A stretch of 64,000 bases of DNA from an uncultured Thermococci archaeon (GTDB taxonomy: Archaea; Methanobacteriota_B; Thermococci; Methanofastidiosales; B48-G16): assembly GCA_964595645.1 (NCBI GenBank), contig CAZQQT010000002.1, positions 165,309 through 229,308 of the forward strand, given 5' to 3'. The notes beneath the pieces are model-generated. The model saw nothing but the letters and a program-made list of their open reading frames with translations. It made no database searches and was not told the origin of the DNA. The position numbers were made by a program, and so were the translations under genes. Positions 13,171 to 47,090 of this stretch are shown one piece after another (within the stretch, counting starts at the first letter, position 1; every line of letters starts with the position of its first letter).

Positions 13171-13917
13171 CTAATATATAAATATCTCAGATTTTAATGT
13201 TTTTATTAGATTTACAGCAGAGAGTGCCGCAAGCATTGAGGTTCTTTTGTTTTCGGAGGGAAGGTTATTGAATAAAAGGTTCATTTTTCCAAACTCCCCC
13301 TCAGCGTAGATCTCATGAATATTCGTATCTACAGATGGATCGGCGATGATGCGGACCTCCGCTTCTCTTTCGGCGGCAAGACTCACAGCAGCAGAGACAT
13401 TTACATTTTTTGGATACTCTTTTACAGCATCTGAGGCAGTACCTTCAAACAATACTTTTTCTTTCATCACCTTCACTCCCAATGACTCCGGATTTTTGCG
13501 GGTAGTGAGCACCACCTTCTTCACCTCGACTAAGGATGCCGCTCTGAGTGCATCTAATCCTCCTACTGCACCATGAGGGATATAAATTCTACAGTTGTTG
13601 GTGGATGCGACTTTTTTTACTTCATCGAGGAATGCAGAGTCTGTAAGAGCACCAACGCTCATTACCATGACGTCCATTCCGTTTTTCAGGATCTTTGGAA
13701 CTAACTCTCTCACCGCATCTCCTGAGGCGGACTCAACAACCAGATCGAGATCCATCTCCACGAGCTCCTCAAAGGAACAGGCAATATCTTCACCAATAAT
13801 ATCACTTGTTACTTTCATTCTCTCAGGGTTCCTATCGTAACACGCTTTTACCTCGTTTTTAAAATGCGTAGTGATGAGAGTCCCGATATATCCGCATCCT
13901 ATTATACCAATCCGCAT
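13171..13917 (-). CDS. nadX: L-aspartate dehydrogenase
   Basis: GIIGCGYIG, VESAS, SVGAL, GAVGGLD, YPKNVNVSAA, N.HEI, TSMLAALS. Confidence 0.93.
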   Translation of the reverse strand: MRIGIIGCGYIGTLITTHFKNEVKACYDRNPERMKVTSDIIGEDIACSFEELVEMDLDLVVESASGDAVRELVPKILKNGMDVMVMSVGALTDSAFLDEVKKVASTNNCRIYIPHGAVGGLDALRAASLVEVKKVVLTTRKNPESLGVKVMKEKVLFEGTASDAVKEYPKNVNVSAAVSLAAEREAEVRIIADPSVDTNIHEIYAEGEFGKMNLLFNNLPSENKRTSMLAALSAVNLIKTLKSEIFIY

Positions 13918-14016
13918 TACACGTACTGACTCGAGCCGATATTTAAAGCTTACGTAAAAAGAACGGACTGGAAAAAGAGTGAAAAGATTTATATTATTTC
14001 GCTGTGAGTTTCTACC

Positions 14017-14349
14017 ATGATGCCCAATATGAACTCAAAGCAGATGAAAAAACTGATGAAAAAAGCTGGGATTAAAATGAAGGAGCTCCCGGTGAAAAAG
14101 ATCACTTTTGAGTTTGACGAGAAAGAGTGGGAGTTCACCGATGTACAGGTCACGCAGATGACGATGGGAGGCCAGAAGACATTTCAAGTTACAGGGGACT
14201 ACATGGAGAAGAAAAAAGGCTTCCCAGAAGAAGACGTGAAAATGGTGGCAGAGAAGGCAGGAGTAAGTATGGAAAACGCAGAAAACGCCTTGAGAGACAC
14301 GGACGGAGACATTGCAGAGGCTATAATGAATCTCAGTAAGAACGAATGA
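14017..14349 (+). CDS. nac: Nascent polypeptide-associated complex protein
   Basis: KQMKKLMKKAGI N-terminus; C-terminal UBA (EEDVKMVAEKAGVS...GDIAEAI). Confidence 0.93.
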   Translation: MMPNMNSKQMKKLMKKAGIKMKELPVKKITFEFDEKEWEFTDVQVTQMTMGGQKTFQVTGDYMEKKKGFPEEDVKMVAEKAGVSMENAENALRDTDGDIAEAIMNLSKNE

Positions 14350-39399: not shown

Positions 39400-40380
39400 A
39401 TGGAGTACACAATCGGAACCATTGGGAGCCATTCGGCGCTGAACATACTCAACGGTGCGAAGGAAGAAGGATTCGAGACGCTTCTTCTTTGCGAAAAAGG
39501 AAGACGATTTTACGAGCGATTTCACGTTGCAGATGAGATATTTTACCTCGACAACCTCGAGGAGATACGAACAATGCAGGAGGAGCTCATTGACAAGAAT
39601 GTGATACTGATTCCCCACGGGAGCTATATCTCCTATCTCCCACTGAATATCATTGAGCACGAGTTTAACGTCCCCATCTTTGGCAATAAGTTTCTCTTCC
39701 GGTGGGAATCGGACAGGGATCGTGAGCAGCAGTGGCTGGGGGATTCCGGAATACGAATTCCCAAAACGTTTGATATTGATGATGTTGATAGGGAGGTCAT
39801 CGTCAAACTTCATGGAGCGAAGGGAGGGAAGGGCTACTTTTTTGCGAAGAACAAGGAAGAGATTCAACGACGAGTGAAGAAAGGAGAAAAATATCAGATA
39901 CAGGAGTATGTGAAAGGAGTGGCAATGTACTTCCACTATTTCTACTCGCCACTGGAAGATGAGAATGTGTTGATGAGTATCGACAGGCGATACGAAAGCA
40001 ACGTGGACTTCTTGGGGAGAATGCCGCAGGGATTCAACGTTGAGCCAAGTTACGTGGTGGTAGGGAACTTCCCCATTGTTATCCGGGAATCGCTCCTGGA
40101 AAAGGTGTTTGATATTGGTGATAAGGCACTGAAACAGTCACAGACAATAGATGACCGGGGGCTGATCGGTCCGTACTGTCTCGAGACGATTGTGACGGAT
40201 GAGCTTGAGATCGTGACCTTTGAAATCTCGGCACGGATCGTAGCTGGTACCAACCCCTTCATTCCATACTCTCCCTACTCCTACATGAAGTACGGAAAAA
40301 AGATGAGCATGGGGAGAAGAATCGCTACGGAGATAAAACATGCCATAGAAGAGGACAGGTTAGAAGAGGTCCTGACATAA
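39400..40380 (+). CDS. purP: PurP-family formate-dependent FAICAR synthetase (ATP-grasp)
   Basis: GSHSAL, IPHGS, GAKGGKGYF, DRRYES, FEISARIVAGTN, MGRRIA. Confidence 0.88.
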   Translation: MEYTIGTIGSHSALNILNGAKEEGFETLLLCEKGRRFYERFHVADEIFYLDNLEEIRTMQEELIDKNVILIPHGSYISYLPLNIIEHEFNVPIFGNKFLFRWESDRDREQQWLGDSGIRIPKTFDIDDVDREVIVKLHGAKGGKGYFFAKNKEEIQRRVKKGEKYQIQEYVKGVAMYFHYFYSPLEDENVLMSIDRRYESNVDFLGRMPQGFNVEPSYVVVGNFPIVIRESLLEKVFDIGDKALKQSQTIDDRGLIGPYCLETIVTDELEIVTFEISARIVAGTNPFIPYSPYSYMKYGKKMSMGRRIATEIKHAIEEDRLEEVLT

Positions 40381-40827
40381 CACCGCAATTTCCTCCACAA
40401 TTTTTTCTCTATTTTCCTCAGTCACGGTAACAATTTTGTAGTTCTCTCTTTTTTTGACTACGTCCTCGAGGATATCTTCTCGCACAATTACCAGCGAGTC
40501 CTCTGTCAAATACTGGAAAATGTCGATAATCCCTCTCATCTCTAGATGGCCAATCTCGTCGTAGACAAGAATATCTCCTGTTCGTTGCAGTGCACGCTCC
40601 ACAAACTGGAGTGCCGCGGGATTGAAGTAATATCCCTTCACCTTGAACCCGATCTTCTCCTTCGATGCGAGCACTCGTTTCTCATGTGTCACGAGATCTT
40701 CAACAAAGTATCTTCCTCCCGATCGTTCACTTATCACACCGTAGATATCCTTCTCCAGCATCTCTACCACCGCACGCAGTACCGTTGTTTTGCCCACGCC
40801 AATAGCACCCGTGATGATGAGGATCAT
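40360..40827 (-). CDS. Small P-loop NTPase (NTPase_1/DUF2478-like)
   Basis: ITGAIGVGKTT, LVYDEIG.LE; ATGA-coupled to the EcfT gene. Confidence 0.85.
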   Translation of the reverse strand: MILIITGAIGVGKTTVLRAVVEMLEKDIYGVISERSGGRYFVEDLVTHEKRVLASKEKIGFKVKGYYFNPAALQFVERALQRTGDILVYDEIGHLEMRGIIDIFQYLTEDSLVIVREDILEDVVKKRENYKIVTVTEENREKIVEEIAVLCQDLF

Positions 40828-41498
40828 AGGAGGTACCTCCAGTACAGCGACACACCGAGAAGTACGCCTGCTATCACCGTGAGGAGGTAATCCTCCCGAT
40901 GAAATCCACTCTCCCGATAAAACGTTCTCTTTTTATAGAGTCCAAAACACCGACCTTCCATGGATTGAGTGAAGGAATCCGCCCGCTCCAGTGCTGAGTA
41001 GAGAAGAGGGAAAAAGGTATACCTCACGAAGTTGAAGACATTTTTTATCCCGTCGAGTTTCACACCTCGGGCTAACTGCGCTTTTCTGATGATATTGGAC
41101 TCCATGTCAAAGAGAGGGACTAACCTGAAGGTGAAGACGAGGGTGAAGGCGTATCGGTACGGCACGCCGATCCGCATTAACGAGTATGCGAATGTATTGG
41201 GATCGCTTTTCGCGAAAAGCATCCCTGAGAAGATGATTCCCAGAAATCTGAATACCATTCGTAGTGAGAATGCTAGTCGCTCCACAAGGCTTCCCTCTAG
41301 AAATATTACGTTGATGATCAGGATAAAAACTGCAAAGGAGAAGATGATCTTCCTCCTTGTCATTGCAGAAAATCCCAGACGCAGAGAAAAAATCACGAGG
41401 GAAATACCACATAAGAATGCGATTACCAGCACATTCTGGAACAGAAAGAGGAGAACACAGTATATAATAAGGAGGAAAAACTTTGTTAACGGGTTCAT
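40824..41498 (-). CDS. ecfT: ECF transporter T component
   Basis: NPLTK start; RLVP, AQLARG and SMEGR coupling motifs. Confidence 0.92.
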   Translation of the reverse strand: MNPLTKFFLLIIYCVLLFLFQNVLVIAFLCGISLVIFSLRLGFSAMTRRKIIFSFAVFILIINVIFLEGSLVERLAFSLRMVFRFLGIIFSGMLFAKSDPNTFAYSLMRIGVPYRYAFTLVFTFRLVPLFDMESNIIRKAQLARGVKLDGIKNVFNFVRYTFFPLLYSALERADSFTQSMEGRCFGLYKKRTFYRESGFHREDYLLTVIAGVLLGVSLYWRYLL

Positions 41499-42832
41499 CC
41501 CGATTCCTCCAGGAGTACGCCATCCTCCAACCGTAAAACACGGGAACAGTAGGTTTCGGCAATTCTGCGGTCGTGAATTACCATGATAATCAGATTGTTG
41601 TTCTCGAGTAGCATGTCCATGATCCTCTTGACATTTTCGTGATCTTGGCCAATGAATGGTTCATCCATAAGAATGATCGTTGGATCGTAGGAGAGGATAG
41701 AGACGATATTCAGCCTCCTTTTCTCTCCGTAACTGAGGTGAAAGGGATTTCTTTCACTGTATTGTTGTAACCCACTTCTCTCCAAGAAGGGATCCACGCT
41801 GCCTTCCATCTCAAAGTTGATGAGTGCGAACGCCGCTTCTTCCTGTACAGATGACTCGAATATTTGGTGGTTGGGATTCTGGAATACAAATCCAATGTCT
41901 CGTGCGAGTTCTGATGTCTTTTTTTCAGTGATTTTCTTTCCTCGGAGACGAATTTCCCCAGAGTACTCAAGATAGTTCATCAGTGACATGAGAAGCGTTG
42001 TTTTTCCGCTCCCGTTTCTCCCCATGATCCCGATGACCTCATTGTGGTACGCATTAAAGGATATCCCGTCGAGAACCTTTTTTTTACCGTACGACACGTG
42101 AAGATTGTCTACCTCAAGGATTTTTTCTCCCTTCTCTCTTCGCTTCGTCGTGTACTGAGGATGCTGGAGACTGTCAACGAGGTGGAGGGTACCATTCTTC
42201 AATGTTGCTATCTTGGTGACCTTGTCAAGGAGGTACTCCCATTTATGTTCGATCACAATCACTGCGATATCCGCCTTTTTCTGTATTTTCTCGATCACGT
42301 TGAATATCTCCTCCGTGACCACAGGATCGAGGTTGCTCGTCGGTTCATCGAAGATAATCACCTCAGGTTTCATGGCAAGAATCGATGCGATCACAATCTT
42401 CTGCTTCTCCCCACCGGAGAGCGAGAACGTATCCCGTTCCCGCAGATGCTCTGCATCCACGATACTCAGTGCCCAGTCTATCCGAGTCTCCATTTCTTCT
42501 TTGTCAAGACACATATTTTCTAGGGCAAAACTGAGTTCATCTATCACATTCAGCGTACAAATCTGATTTTCAGGGTCCTGCTGCACTACCCCCACGTCTT
42601 TGGCGAGATCGAAGAGCTCGTACTCCTCGATATTTTTTCCTTTAAAAAAAATATTTCCTTTCTTTTCTCCTTTTCCTTTTAAAAATCCAGAAATGGCGAG
42701 GGCAAGCGTTGATTTTCCACTTCCACTTTCTCCTGCGAGCAGGATAAAATCTCCTTTCTCTATATGCAGCGAGATATCCTTCAACACCCACTCCTTCTCA
42801 TACCGAAAACTGAAGTTCTCCAGTCTGATCAT
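41495..42832 (-). CDS. ecfA: Fused double ECF ATPase (EcfA-A')
   Basis: Two Walker A motifs (GESGSGKST, GRNGSGKTT); QDPENQI and QNPNHQI; LSGGEKQ and LSYGEKRR. Confidence 0.93.
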   Translation of the reverse strand: MIRLENFSFRYEKEWVLKDISLHIEKGDFILLAGESGSGKSTLALAISGFLKGKGEKKGNIFFKGKNIEEYELFDLAKDVGVVQQDPENQICTLNVIDELSFALENMCLDKEEMETRIDWALSIVDAEHLRERDTFSLSGGEKQKIVIASILAMKPEVIIFDEPTSNLDPVVTEEIFNVIEKIQKKADIAVIVIEHKWEYLLDKVTKIATLKNGTLHLVDSLQHPQYTTKRREKGEKILEVDNLHVSYGKKKVLDGISFNAYHNEVIGIMGRNGSGKTTLLMSLMNYLEYSGEIRLRGKKITEKKTSELARDIGFVFQNPNHQIFESSVQEEAAFALINFEMEGSVDPFLERSGLQQYSERNPFHLSYGEKRRLNIVSILSYDPTIILMDEPFIGQDHENVKRIMDMLLENNNLIIMVIHDRRIAETYCSRVLRLEDGVLLEESG

Positions 42833-43788
42833 GCGATCCGTATCTCCGCGACATCACGAACCCAGTAGCCACCATCGAATCCCTTGGCGATCAGTCTTCT
42901 CTCCGCGGTGAGAATCATCTCATCGTGTATTTTTTCTATAGGGAAGGTTACAGTGTAGCCGTCGTCTCCTACCACCTCTACCTCTTCTCCCTGCGGTTCT
43001 GCCCTTTCCACAATGATCGTGAATGGAATACCTCGGTACTCTTTTTCTTCTTCGTATTGGTACTGTCCTACCATCTCTGCAGCCACTGTTTTCTCGTACA
43101 CACTGAATTCATTGTAATTAAAGCTGTAGGCATTGTTGCAGTCTCCCAAGACAGCGATCGCTTCTCCTGAGGTGTAAATGGCAGCGTAGTAGTAAATTCC
43201 ACCGAAGAGGAGTACGGTTGCAGCACCGATCGTTGCAGCTTTTTTAAGACTGTACCGTTTCTCCTTTCCCTCCAGCACCTCCAGTACATTGTGCGAGAAG
43301 TATCCTGCAAAGAGTACTCCGGAGAAAAAGGCAATACACGAGATGATAAAGAAGAAGGTTGTTGCATTATAGGGGGCATAAAAGAGCTGAAATATAAATA
43401 CATTTGTTCCTGTGGCAATCCCTCCAGCGAGAAGATAGGTGAGGAAGTGCCGTTTTCTTAGTGTGAGAAAGACGAGATCGACCAAAAGCCCTTGGGTACC
43501 ACTTAAGACCAACACGAAGATACCGAGTTTCCCCCCAGAGAAAAGCTCGACAAAGGCCTTCAGTATCCCGATCATGAGACCAGTACCTCTCTTTCGGGTG
43601 AGGCCGTAGCCTAAGGTGATCCAGAAGATGTGGAGTCCGGCGAGGAACTGTCCGGCACCGAACGGGACACCCAGAAACCTGTTTACCAGGTTCGCTAAGT
43701 AGCCGATGTATGTGGAGGATATCCCTCCGAGTGCAGAGAGTATCGCAATCACCACGAGATCCTTCGTTTCAAAGTAGTATTTACCCAT
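42829..43788 (-). CDS. ECF S-component (YkoE/ThiV-like) fused to a C-terminal molybdopterin-binding-fold domain
   Basis: F.TKDLVVIAILSAL.G and TRKRGTG..G....VE motifs, then an extra TM and EYRGIP...V.V.GDDGY...RLI...YWVRDV.EI. Confidence 0.8.
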   Translation of the reverse strand: MGKYYFETKDLVVIAILSALGGISSTYIGYLANLVNRFLGVPFGAGQFLAGLHIFWITLGYGLTRKRGTGLMIGILKAFVELFSGGKLGIFVLVLSGTQGLLVDLVFLTLRKRHFLTYLLAGGIATGTNVFIFQLFYAPYNATTFFFIISCIAFFSGVLFAGYFSHNVLEVLEGKEKRYSLKKAATIGAATVLLFGGIYYYAAIYTSGEAIAVLGDCNNAYSFNYNEFSVYEKTVAAEMVGQYQYEEEKEYRGIPFTIIVERAEPQGEEVEVVGDDGYTVTFPIEKIHDEMILTAERRLIAKGFDGGYWVRDVAEIRIA

Positions 43789-44707
43789 CTTCACACCTCA
43801 CGACAGCTACATCCACTGTGTCGTCCACCGTAACCTTTACGTAGTGATAGAACCCATCGGCTAATAGCGGTGCACCGGCACCACCGGAGATGACATATGT
43901 TGTATTGTCGTCTTTCTTTTTATAGGGGGAGTGGATATGACCACAGAATACGTAGTCGACATGGTTGTCCTGCACGATTGCTCTAAACGCTTCTCCATCG
44001 ATCATGGTGCTGGTACCGCCAGGCCGTGGATCGAAGGGCGGCATATGCATGAAGATGAAGACATGATTGCGCTCTTTCTGGAGTGTTGTACGAAGAAACT
44101 CCAGCTGCTCCGCATCCAGGAATCCTGTGGCGTTGTCGAGCACAACGAAAAGAGAGGATCCGTAGGTGAAGGAGTAGTATCGCGGACCGAGGTACTGCTC
44201 ATACAGATCGGGATCGTCCATGATATCGTGATTTCCACGGACAAAGAAGAGAGGAGCATGAAGATTGTTTGCTGTATTGAGAAATGCAGTAAAGTTAGCA
44301 GTACTCGCTTCACAGACAAAATCTCCTCCACCTACCACGAATAACGGATTGTCGTCGTTGATCTTCTCAATCATCGTATGAAATACCTGCGTCTGCTGTG
44401 CTCCCGATTCTGGTTGACTGTCGCTGAAAAATACAAACGTATAGCTCTCACGTGTGTCAGGATCCAGCTGCACGTGTTCTTTTTCAAAAGGGCCGAGAGT
44501 GAAATGGAGTTCTTTGTGAAAGTTGGGAAGTACAAAGTCACGGGTTGTGGGTAGTAACGAGTAGTTGGTGATGGTGATGGAGGGATAGAGCCCTGTGGCG
44601 AAGATTCTCTGGTTCTCCTGTGTCCCCTCCGTTACATCAATGGTAGTTTTGGGGATGAGGAGGAGACAGAGAATGCCAATGATCGCCAATAGTATATATT
44701 TCTTCAT
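43781..44707 (-). CDS. Secreted/anchored calcineurin-like metallophosphoesterase
   Basis: Signal/anchor MKKYILLAIIG; FSDSQ, GGDFV, GNHD, FMHMPP, GHIH. Confidence 0.9.
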   Translation of the reverse strand: MKKYILLAIIGILCLLLIPKTTIDVTEGTQENQRIFATGLYPSITITNYSLLPTTRDFVLPNFHKELHFTLGPFEKEHVQLDPDTRESYTFVFFSDSQPESGAQQTQVFHTMIEKINDDNPLFVVGGGDFVCEASTANFTAFLNTANNLHAPLFFVRGNHDIMDDPDLYEQYLGPRYYSFTYGSSLFVVLDNATGFLDAEQLEFLRTTLQKERNHVFIFMHMPPFDPRPGGTSTMIDGEAFRAIVQDNHVDYVFCGHIHSPYKKKDDNTTYVISGGAGAPLLADGFYHYVKVTVDDTVDVAVVRCEDG

Positions 44708-44739
44708 CGATATGTTTCTTCGAACATAACGTTTATAAA
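44706..44739. promoter_or_regulatory. ModE-like operator palindrome abutting a shared bidirectional TATA box
   Basis: ATCGATATGTT-TCTTCG-AACATAACGTT (44706-44733), then TTTATAAA (44732-44739). Confidence 0.65.
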
Positions 44740-44769
44740 GGTTTTGTGTGTCACTGCAGTAGTGATACC

Positions 44770-45570
44770 ATGAAGACAAGATACCAACTACTAATTGGCG
44801 TACTTGCAGTATCCCTTCTTGTGGGATGCGTGACCGAGGAGAAAGAAACACCGACGTACACTGTTGAAATCTCAGGACTGAAAGAGGGAGAACTCGCACT
44901 GAGTGAATTGCGCTCGATGCCCTCTGAGGAGTTTACCGCAACGCTCGTGAAATCTACGGGAACAGAGATAGAAAACTCATGGAAGGGGGTGCTTCTCTCT
45001 GATGTCCTCGATACCTATGACGTCGCTCCGGATTACGTTACCTTTGTCGCGAAGGACGGCTATATGTCGACGATGGAATGGAGCGATCTGACCAACGCGT
45101 ACCTCTGCTATGAAATGGACGAGGAAGAGATTACCCAGGAAGATGGTGGACCAGTACGACTTGTGATTCCGGATCAACCGGGAAAACTCTGGTTAAAGTA
45201 TTTGAAGGAGATAAAACTCCTCGGGAAGGAGAACTCGCTGGTAATCAACGGAAAAACAAAGGTTACCCTGGTACTCCCACCGGAGGATCTCACCGGTCTT
45301 TTCGATCAGAAAACGGTCACTGCGGAGTATAAAGGTGAGGAGAGTACCTTTGAAGGAGTCCCGTTGGTCGCATTATTGAATAGAGCACGGTACGAAGACG
45401 ATGCCGCGAAGGTTAAATTTACCGCTGCAGATGGCTATACAGTCGAACTGGAGTTCAGCGAGGTCTATTCAAACGAGGATATCCTCGTGACAGAGGATTT
45501 CAGACTGATCATGCCAGGCTACGAATCGAAGTACTGGATGAAGGATTTGCGGGAGATAGACGTACTATGA
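44770..45570 (+). CDS. Lipoprotein with two molybdopterin-binding-fold (Oxidored_molyb-like) domains
   Basis: Lipobox LLVGC; WKGVLLSDVL, F.AKDGY, DGGPVRLVIP, WLKYL; second copy FEGVPL, AADGY, RLIMPG, YWMKDL. Confidence 0.82.
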   Translation: MKTRYQLLIGVLAVSLLVGCVTEEKETPTYTVEISGLKEGELALSELRSMPSEEFTATLVKSTGTEIENSWKGVLLSDVLDTYDVAPDYVTFVAKDGYMSTMEWSDLTNAYLCYEMDEEEITQEDGGPVRLVIPDQPGKLWLKYLKEIKLLGKENSLVINGKTKVTLVLPPEDLTGLFDQKTVTAEYKGEESTFEGVPLVALLNRARYEDDAAKVKFTAADGYTVELEFSEVYSNEDILVTEDFRLIMPGYESKYWMKDLREIDVL

Positions 45571-46295
45571 AGAAGTTTATCTCCATTTTTTTATTATTTC
45601 TCCTATTAGGATGTATACAGGGAGAAAAGACTGCAACGTGGAAAATTCACGTGATCGAGAACGATGTGACGGAGTATTCACTCTCAGCACTGAAAGAGTT
45701 CGAGACTGAGACGATCCACGAGACGGTGGTGGGAAAGGAGGTTCGAAAGATACCGTGGGAAGGGGTGCCATCGACCGCGCTCGGTGACGGCGAGATCATC
45801 AATTATATCTCCGAGGATCGATATCTAGTGAGTATTCCCAGTACTGTGGATGTCATCCTCGCGTATAAAAAAGAGGGAGATTCTATCCCAAAAGAGGATG
45901 GGGGGCCGCTGAAGATTACGGCAGACCCGCAGTATGGCTGCAAATGTAACTGGCTGAAGTACCTCAAAATCGTTGAATTTGTGGATAGGGAAAACACGAT
46001 ATCGATCTATGGAGAGGTCACGAATATTCTCTACTTTTCGCCACGAGATCTCAATATCTTCTACTCGCTGGACGCCTTGCTGGAAGATCGGTACCATCGG
46101 GCCGCGATCACGAAAATCCTCGACAAAGCGATATGCAAACCGAATGCCAAAACCGTGACATTCGTCACAGGAGACAGAAGGGAAACATTCGACCTATCGA
46201 CGATACGAGAAGAGAACCCTGAGATTGTCTACAATCAAGGGTTTGCTATCCCCTCGTTGGGTCTGAGCGATGTGAGATCGATTGTGATAGGGTAG
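45567..46295 (+). CDS. Lipoprotein with a molybdopterin-binding-fold domain plus a degenerate second copy
   Basis: Lipobox LLLGC; WEGVP, ISEDRY, ILAY, DGGPLKI, GCKCNWLKYL; ATGA overlap with 44770. Confidence 0.78.
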   Translation: MKKFISIFLLFLLLGCIQGEKTATWKIHVIENDVTEYSLSALKEFETETIHETVVGKEVRKIPWEGVPSTALGDGEIINYISEDRYLVSIPSTVDVILAYKKEGDSIPKEDGGPLKITADPQYGCKCNWLKYLKIVEFVDRENTISIYGEVTNILYFSPRDLNIFYSLDALLEDRYHRAAITKILDKAICKPNAKTVTFVTGDRRETFDLSTIREENPEIVYNQGFAIPSLGLSDVRSIVIG

Positions 46296-47090
46296 TTACC
46301 ATCCCAGTGTGACGTCAAAATCGAACTCATTGAGCACATGTTGCATCCTCTTTTTCAGTAGTAGCAGATATTTTTCGTTGTCTTTTATTTTTTTGTAGCT
46401 TTTCACGGTGTCCACATCCAAATATTTCTTCATTCGATGCCAGACATTCTGATAGAGATTCATTTTGTCGATATAGAGGCGCGTCACGCCCCGCTCTGCA
46501 AATGCTGTGAACGCTGCTCGTATTTTTTCCTCAGTATCAGAGAACATCGGGATCACAGGACCGAAAAACACGTAGCAGTCCTCTATCTCCTCGAGAATAT
46601 TCAACCGTTCTTCAACCGATGACGCGCCTGGCTCAAACTGTTGTCGTATGTCTTCTTCAACTGTGGTGAAGGTGACTCCCACCTCGGCATCTACCCTCTC
46701 CAGCAATGTTCTGTCTCTGAGGACGAGATCGGACTTTGTGAGGATGCTGATGGGAACATCGTATCGGGAGAGCACCTGTAAGCACTTCTTCGTTATCTCA
46801 TATTTTCTTTCCAACGGTTGATAAGGGTCCGTGACCGAGGAGATGAGAATGCTTCCTTCTGGAGATTTTTTCATCTGTTTGGCGAGGACTCGGGGAGCGT
46901 TCACCTTTACGTCCACAAACTCCCCCCATGCTTCTTTGTGGTTTGCGAACTTCTTCATGAACACAGCGTAGCAGTAGATGCATCCATGCTGGCATCCCAT
47001 GTACGGGTTTACTGCGTAGTCTATCCCGTAGATACCAGATTTTGAGAGGATAGATTTACAGTAGATCTCGTTTATTTGCACATGGTACAA
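46296..47090 (-). CDS. Radical SAM protein, spore-photoproduct-lyase-like
   Basis: NPYMGCQHGCIYCYA, SSVTDPYQP.E, ILTKS, FEPGA. Confidence 0.9.
   Translation of the reverse strand: MYHVQINEIYCKSILSKSGIYGIDYAVNPYMGCQHGCIYCYAVFMKKFANHKEAWGEFVDVKVNAPRVLAKQMKKSPEGSILISSVTDPYQPLERKYEITKKCLQVLSRYDVPISILTKSDLVLRDRTLLERVDAEVGVTFTTVEEDIRQQFEPGASSVEERLNILEEIEDCYVFFGPVIPMFSDTEEKIRAAFTAFAERGVTRLYIDKMNLYQNVWHRMKKYLDVDTVKSYKKIKDNEKYLLLLKKRMQHVLNEFDFDVTLGW

Follow-up and report, generated by a model that had tools for sequence, protein, structure and literature searches.

We analysed a 64,000-nucleotide stretch of DNA from an uncultured Thermococci archaeon (contig CAZQQT010000002.1; "the window" below means this whole stretch) and found at 42829-43788, on the minus strand, a gene that fuses the substrate-binding (S) component of an energy-coupling factor (ECF) transporter to an extracytoplasmic domain of the sulfite oxidase (SUOX) fold. 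We think it reasonably likely that this S-fusion is the S component of a dedicated group I ECF importer whose cargo is, most likely, the Mo/W pyranopterin cofactor, captured and delivered by the tethered receptor. The cargo is probably metal-loaded W- or Mo-molybdopterin (W/Mo-MPT). The machine itself is a known one, a group I ECF importer like YkoEDC; its novelty lies in the tethered receptor, in the receptor proteins that accompany it and in what it apparently carries. The evidence speaks for the pyranopterin cofactor and not for the thiamine or hydroxymethylpyrimidine (HMP) of the family name, and the substrate is proposed on three grounds: a molybdenum/tungsten cofactor (Moco/Tuco) riboswitch in bacterial loci, complementarity with the cofactor pathway, and the gene set of the organism's own genome.

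The reading frame, 42829-43794 on the minus strand, is single and uninterrupted (open reading frame analysis), and from the likely start, ATG 43788, its product has 319 aa. The gene is divided as follows:

43270..43788, minus strand: S-component core, aa 1-173, six transmembrane (TM) helices, YkoE/PF09819 type (PF09819, profile, Foldseek, AlphaFold2)

43177..43269, minus strand: basic cytoplasmic linker (GKEKRYS-LKK) and TM helix 7, aa 181-204 (AlphaFold2, Kyte-Doolittle, K+R counts)

42832..43176, minus strand: extracytoplasmic Cys-less reduced SUOX-fold domain, aa 205-319 (115 aa) (BLASTP, Foldseek, profile)

42829-42831, minus strand: stop codon of the S-fusion

A preliminary description, made from the letters of this DNA, had proposed an S-component followed by a charged linker, one more TM helix and a Moco-fold domain, and this architecture was borne out by Pfam, AlphaFold2 (AF2), Foldseek and BLASTP. 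Residues 11-127 match PF09819 (E 1.3e-20; 74.2 bits against a curated cut-off of 25.2), and a profile built from 46 homologues matches YkoE (5EDL) with E 2.7e-17. The N-terminal part has the six-helix S-component fold, as shown by the Foldseek match to the same structure (E 2.1e-7, template modelling score 0.76 on the target). The AF2 model, built from the 46 homologues (predicted local distance difference test, pLDDT, 84.4), contains the six S-component helices, a seventh at 181-204 and a beta-rich domain at 211-318.

The possibility that the fusion is a frameshift or assembly artefact could be ruled out by the survey across genomes that the preliminary description had called for. At least 120 protein clusters contain the full-length fusion, and a relative is encoded in 253 of about 185,000 species genomes; thus the fusion is neither a chance event nor a frameshift. 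Alignments of the best 120 of 280 clusters span 84-100% of the query, and their sources are named as Theionarchaea, Methanofastidiosia, Thermoplasmata, Syntrophomonadales, Thermovorax and others. The best 80 relatives are all full length unless a contig end cuts them. An exhaustive search of 1.84 billion representatives gave 222 clusters, 37 of them at E <=1e-30. Split versions were sought as well: the closest unfused S-components (P0155 and P0156; 39-42% identity) stand alone in unrelated contexts with no ECF or SUOX neighbours, and are no split forms of the fusion.

The orientation of the C-terminal domain follows from the distribution of charge. Positive charges are concentrated in three segments, loop 2-3 (RKRG), loop 4-5 (RKRH) and the 6-7 linker, and the other loops are almost free of K and R. 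The linker loop 174-180 has three K+R, two further Lys lie at 182-183, and the Kyte-Doolittle peak of helix 7 is at 186-204. Among the 46 homologues the median K+R is 2, 2 and 5 in the inside loops and 0, 0 and 0 outside, and the C-domain is acidic (net charge -13 here, median -10 in the homologues). The chain of YkoE is reported to end toward the cytosol after helix 6 (PMC5037267); therefore the extra helix 7 puts the C-domain outside the cell. The outside location, on which the preliminary description had made its proposal depend, is thus what topology prediction gives from both the positive-inside pattern and the YkoE chain end, and the positive-inside pattern, here and in the homologues, speaks against a cytoplasmic C-domain, which we reject. 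The 6-7 linker varies from 15 to 62 aa among the homologues (median K+R 5), and such variation would fit a flexible tether.

The pocket of the S-component resembles that of YkoE only in part. In YkoE, thiamine is contacted by Trp49, Tyr46, Glu77, Gln95 and Asp131, of which Glu77 and Gln95 bind the aminopyrimidine ring (PMC5037267). We mapped these residues by profile alignment, with a chain numbering offset of 2 inferred from the Trp and Tyr positions. Glu77 corresponds to E81, which is invariant among the homologues, and Gln95 to Q99, which is nearly so. The other three are replaced: Trp49 by an invariant His53, Asp131 by an invariant Gln134 and Tyr46 by Ala50 (Ala or Ser in the homologues shown). 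Glu and Gln are consequently the only two of the five contacts retained. Since a pterin also has an aminopyrimidine ring, the retained pair may serve to hold a pterin.

The tethered domain belongs to the SUOX fold. In Foldseek its part of the model matches SorA, SoxC, YedY and sulfite oxidase, and also PruR (template modelling score about 0.6 on the target), a pterin receptor of Agrobacterium and other Proteobacteria that is a Cys-less, truncated periplasmic SUOX fold (PDB 7kou, 7rkb; PMC11194511). The profile from the 46 homologues matches SoxC (E 3.2e-5), and PF00174 is precomputed for many homologues of the fusion. The domain had earlier been said to parallel the second domain of the lipoprotein encoded at 44770, and this is upheld by BLASTP, in which the C-terminal 90 residues align at 32% identity (E 5e-12); the motif pairs quoted for it, GDDGYTV/AADGYTV and RLI..YWVRDV/RLI..YWMKDL, are present in that alignment. 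In an alignment with a Cys-bearing SUOX enzyme of the same genome (motif HCVEGWS), Gly241 occupies the column of the Mo-ligating Cys. The lipoprotein domains and their relatives have K, G, D, S or N in this column, and the 46 homologues have no conserved Cys there; their sole Cys-rich column (41%) lies at the N-terminal edge of the domain. D276-G-Y278 and W309 are invariant in the 46 homologues, and in an alignment of ten SUOX-type domains this Asp never varies and the Tyr and Trp hardly do. From these residues, the tethered domain appears to be a binder and not an enzyme. It is plausible that it captures the ligand and hands it to the S pocket, a step with which the cleft-type residues conserved here (D276-G-Y278, W309) and the precedent of PruR would agree.

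The coupling of an S-component to a SUOX-like protein is found a second time, unfused, in the same genome, about 59 kb before the start of the window (L097 16-663(+) and 630-1094(+); G000:C2:105015-106093). There, the gene of an S-component of another family (PF07155, E 2.2e-7) overlaps that of a SUOX-like protein (PF00174, E 2.6e-6) that is Cys-less and anchored by a TM segment. This pair suggests that the coupling arose more than once. A SUOX protein of ~180 aa lies beside bacterial fusions; it is only weakly like the C-domain of the S-fusion (E 0.011), and we do not claim it as the direct source of the module.

The domain might instead have no ligand of its own and serve either as a docking site for loaded lipoproteins, through like-with-like contacts, or as a protective lid on the pocket. 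This is a doubtful explanation, albeit one with some facts in its favor, as the domain is a paralogue of the second lipoprotein domain and one to five further SUOX-like proteins flank the S-fusion in almost all of the 83 loci compared (loci are numbered with the prefix L). Against it, loci L068 and L026 have no separate SUOX protein within the flanks examined. Moreover, the invariant residues D276, Y278, W309, G241 and G253 fall in motifs common to all SUOX-type domains, including the genome's own Cys-bearing enzyme, as would be expected if the cleft itself, and not just an interface, has been retained.

The control of the bacterial orthologues bears directly on the cargo. Rfam places the Moco/Tuco riboswitch RF01055 at the head of a same-strand gene string containing the S-fusion in 12 bacterial loci (L001, L008, L025, L036, L037, L055, L058, L068, L074, L077, L080 and L083), with scores of 46-80 bits against a gathering score of 36; in L080 and L068 it directly precedes the S-fusion gene. 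Stem P3 is missing in all three aptamers whose alignments were examined, and Regulski et al. tied the P3-less form to tungsten-cofactor genes (PMC2408646). Rfam reported no thiamine pyrophosphate (TPP) riboswitch in the bacterial orthologue loci and no RF01055 in the archaeal window. Further copies of RF01055 occur nearby. A second one downstream of the ECF genes (L058 13270-13390; L080 13260-13380) precedes a SUOX-like protein of 1735-1761 aa, and L034 and L036 also have one after EcfT. In L005, an RF01055 on the opposite strand adjoins a gene for a 67-aa TOBE (molbindin-like) protein a few kb from the ECF cluster (13599-13718(-) and 13819-14022(-)).

We then compared the presence of the fusion with that of the cofactor pathway in the window's genome and 25 relatives of its order. 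Among these 26 genomes, the S-fusion is present in 13, MoaA, MoaC and MoaE in 14 and MoeA in 15, and all 26 have genes of the aldehyde:ferredoxin oxidoreductase (AOR) family. The S-fusion was found in 11 of the 11 genomes without MoaA, MoaC, MoaE and MoeA as against 2 of the 14 with the pathway (uncorrected Fisher p 2e-4); one 77%-complete genome shows MoeA only. Pathway-less and pathway-bearing states both occur within one genus. ThiC shows no such complementarity: 12 relatives without ThiC lack the fusion. We also searched 36 further fusion-bearing genome records, of which three had already been counted (identical match coordinates). In the remaining 33, MoaC and MoeA are both missing from 15 (11 of 13 archaea and 4 of 20 bacteria), and three of the pathway-less archaeal records bear the title of a chromosome. 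Counting all 36 records, 35 have AOR genes.

The window's own genome (99.96% complete, 14 contigs) has nine genes of the AOR type together with one PF00384 enzyme and one SUOX enzyme that bears the Cys, and in it no MoaA, MoaC, MoaE, MoeA, MogA/MoaB or MobA was found. Nor was there a ModA, WtpA or TupA, the sole binding protein of that type being the PstS of a Pst operon. With these users present, the organism needs the pterin cofactor, and neither a synthesis route nor a known uptake system for the metal alone was found; nine tungsten-enzyme genes with no genes for making the cofactor make uptake of the ready-made cofactor most likely. The Cys-bearing enzyme (L096 969-1964(-); G000:C1, about 67.8-68.8 kb) is a genuine SUOX enzyme with the HCVEGWS motif; it is joined in one chain to a DUF4405 membrane domain, and a lipobox-like MVSGC precedes it. 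It would be an extracytoplasmic user of the cofactor in a pathway-less genome. A MobB-like P-loop protein persists (L092; G000:C8:4425-4727, minus; PF03205, E 1.6e-14), with MobA and the rest of the pathway not found.

Could the module import the metal and not the pterin, with the SUOX-like domains and the phosphoesterase-like protein binding tungstate or molybdate? We regard this as improbable. The known ECF S-components for metals, CbiM and NikM, form another family, which counts against it. The lack of ModA, WtpA and TupA from the genome does mean that some route for W is needed, and modABC/tupABC-type transporters are also under Moco/Tuco riboswitches (PMC2408646). However, genomes without MoaA/C/E, MoeA and MogA could not equip their AOR enzymes with the metal alone; the S pocket retains the pyrimidine-binding Glu and Gln; and the SUOX/PruR fold binds pterins (PMC11194511).

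There is likewise little likelihood that the cargo is another pterin, fragment or precursor, such as metal-free MPT, cyclic pyranopterin monophosphate (cPMP), an oxidised breakdown product, or a pterin of the neopterin or monapterin type, such as PruR binds. The reduced domain does resemble PruR, whose shortened cleft holds small pterins (PMC11194511), and part of the full SUOX cleft is missing from it. But cPMP would need MoaE, and MPT would need MogA and MoeA, none of which was found in the own genome, and both the class of the riboswitch and the complementarity point specifically to the Moco/Tuco pathway. Finally, an ordinary thiamine/HMP importer, orthologous to YkoEDC and with an accessory domain irrelevant to specificity, is very improbable: PF09819, the homology to 5EDL, the retained E81 and Q99 and the name "thiamin/hydroxymethylpyrimidine transport" that sources give to homologues speak for it, whereas the bacterial orthologue loci have RF01055 and no reported TPP riboswitch, the remaining three YkoE contacts are replaced, and the own genome has ThiC, the presence of which does not complement the fusion.

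Several observations weigh against the uptake of the whole cofactor through the S-fusion. In the Pfam search the C-domain alone fails to reach PF00174, and it is without the 12-20-residue GGP..RL segment of full SUOX domains (as is the second domain of the lipoprotein); because of these two facts, the domain may hold less than the whole cofactor. Moco is labile, and we identified no enzyme for inserting an imported cofactor into AOR or for making bis-MPT. The phyletic counts are uncorrected for shared ancestry, with at least three independent switches seen. In addition, 16 of the 20 bacterial carriers also have the cofactor pathway, so the system does more than stand in for synthesis. As for the structure, the inter-domain geometry of the AF2 model is uncertain (predicted template modelling score 0.61), and the mean pLDDT is 59 over residues 201-210, where helix 7 ends and the domain begins.

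With these points in mind, uptake of the finished cofactor might proceed as follows. Cofactor freed from dead cells into the anoxic surroundings would be caught by the two lipoproteins and the tethered domain, and a signal-anchored phosphoesterase may first trim dinucleotide forms of it. The tethered domain would then pass the ligand on to the S pocket, with the advantage of a high local concentration. Driven by EcfAA', the S core would topple on EcfT, with the long linker uncoupling helix 7, which would stay upright. The computations show the fusion with its topology, fold and missing Cys, its operon and distribution, the riboswitch of the bacterial orthologues and the complementarity with the pathway; from there we infer the substrate and the hand-off, and likewise the roles of the phosphoesterase and the P-loop NTPase.

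The genes surrounding the S-fusion in the window are these:

43781..44707, minus strand: signal-anchored metallophosphoesterase heading the operon (PF00149, E 3.2e-17), with a hydrophobic N-terminus MKKYILLAIIGILCLLLIP

41495..42832, minus strand: fused double ATPase EcfA-A', 445 aa (two PF00005; TIGR04520 and TIGR04521, E around 1e-95)

40824..41498, minus strand: EcfT transmembrane component, 224 aa (PF02361 CbiQ, E 3e-18)

40360..40827, minus strand: P-loop NTPase closing the operon (PF03266, E 4.4e-16)

44770..45570, plus strand: divergent lipoprotein with two Cys-less SUOX-like domains, one full and one reduced (PF00174 in two stretches, E 1.6e-29)

45567..46295, plus strand: second lipoprotein with SUOX-like domain(s) (PF00174, E 2.2e-8)

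The likely start of the S-fusion overlaps the stop of the phosphoesterase gene upstream (ATGGGTAA), and its stop, TGA, shares bases with the start ATG of EcfAA'. The start and stop overlaps indicate that the five leftward genes (phosphoesterase, S-fusion, EcfAA', EcfT and NTPase) are tightly coupled. The lipoboxes of the two lipoproteins are LLVGC (44770) and LLLGC (45567), and neither protein has a Cys at the ligand column. A radical-SAM gene at 46296-47090(-) adjoins the second lipoprotein and has the same place in L010 and L012 only.

The 62-bp divergent spacer, 44708-44769, contains a palindrome, CGATATG-N10-CATAACG, abutting TTTATAAA at the TATA box. It is kept in L010 and L012-L014, doubled (one per direction) in L016-L018 and present as a variant in L020. 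Because the window's genome has no TOBE-domain protein, a canonical ModE is an unlikely binder, and the label "ModE-like" for this palindrome is not backed by a canonical ModE.

The order of the ECF genes is strongly conserved, EcfAA' and then EcfT following the S-fusion in all of the 83 loci wherever the flank suffices. EcfT is conserved downstream in 66 of the 83, the rest being cut short or fused to A-A'; in the bacterial loci L008/L063, L055, L070 and L086, EcfA-A' and EcfT form one polypeptide of 774-904 aa. Phosphoesterase homologues are found in 59 of the 83 loci, and the bacterial ones are purple-acid-phosphatase-like. In the window's own clade, the PF03266 NTPase comes after EcfT in six loci; in a seventh (L069) it lies on the opposite strand. 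Just upstream of bacterial clusters, genes for a MotA/ExbB-type channel and a DUF2149 protein (L001 651-1602; L008 861-1833) sit between those for cell-surface SUOX/Big_2/SLH proteins, and their products might energise surface receptors.

In the textbook view, ECF transporters by definition do without any extracytoplasmic binding protein, and every user of Moco or Tuco is held to make its own, the cofactor being too labile for sharing. Both views are challenged by a conserved S-component that has a pterin-fold receptor tethered to it. If true, the system would explain how many anaerobic archaea and some bacteria have tungsten enzymes after loss of the whole pathway, and auxotrophy for the Mo/W cofactor and its cross-feeding in anoxic communities would become directly testable. 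It would also offer work on the ECF mechanism a natural case of toppling with a tethered load, and give a way of providing engineered or unculturable anaerobes with cofactor. With moderate confidence, we hold it to be the first prokaryotic uptake system for finished Mo/W pyranopterin cofactor and, among ECF S-components, the first to which an extracytoplasmic receptor is covalently tethered. No description of the system was found in the searchable literature (subscription journals lie outside it), including PMC2408646, PMC3766115 and PMC13119186; that literature describes Moco uptake for C. elegans only, and none for a microbe.

The closest known system is YkoEDC of Bacillus subtilis, a group I ECF thiamine/HMP importer (YkoE 5EDL; PMC5037267). 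Both have PF09819 and the six-helix fold, both are dedicated modules with a fused double ATPase and a T component, and the Glu and Gln of the pyrimidine site are conserved. Unlike YkoE, the S-fusion adds a TM helix and an extracytoplasmic SUOX-fold domain and has Trp49, Tyr46 and Asp131 replaced; its orthologues in bacteria are under a Moco/Tuco riboswitch, and its distribution complements Moco synthesis and not thiamine synthesis. As in PruR, the tethered domain is a small extracytoplasmic SUOX-like fold without a Mo-ligating Cys or catalytic partner domains. PruR holds the pterin ring in a Tyr/Trp sandwich with an Asn contact, and the Tyr and Trp conserved here (in the invariant D276-G-Y278 and W309) lie at motifs that may be comparable. 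The Cys position is Gly here, whereas PruR has Trp (in a Pro-Trp motif). PruR is encoded in a pruR-dcpA operon and signals to DcpA (PMC11194511), whereas the neighbours here are ECF genes with no DcpA-type cyclase; PruR is, furthermore, soluble, has no link to a transporter and binds non-Moco pterins (PMC11194511). With the Moco enzymes of the SUOX family (SorA, SoxC, YedY/MsrP and sulfite oxidase; PF00174) the tethered domain shares the fold and the D-G-Y and W-V-K motifs. In contrast to these enzymes, it is shortened and Cys-less, has no dimerisation or redox partner domain, and lies outside after a Sec-type TM helix.

Two other kinds of importer offer a functional likeness. In ABC importers of the OpuA and GlnPQ type, a fused binding domain raises the local concentration of the receptor, as the tethered domain of the S-fusion would; these differ in being type I importers with classical substrate-binding protein folds. 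In the group I Ni/Co ECF systems, CbiN and NikK/NikL are extra extracytoplasmic or membrane parts that aid loading, as the tethered domain may do, whereas their folds are unrelated, their cargo is a metal ion and they are separate polypeptides.

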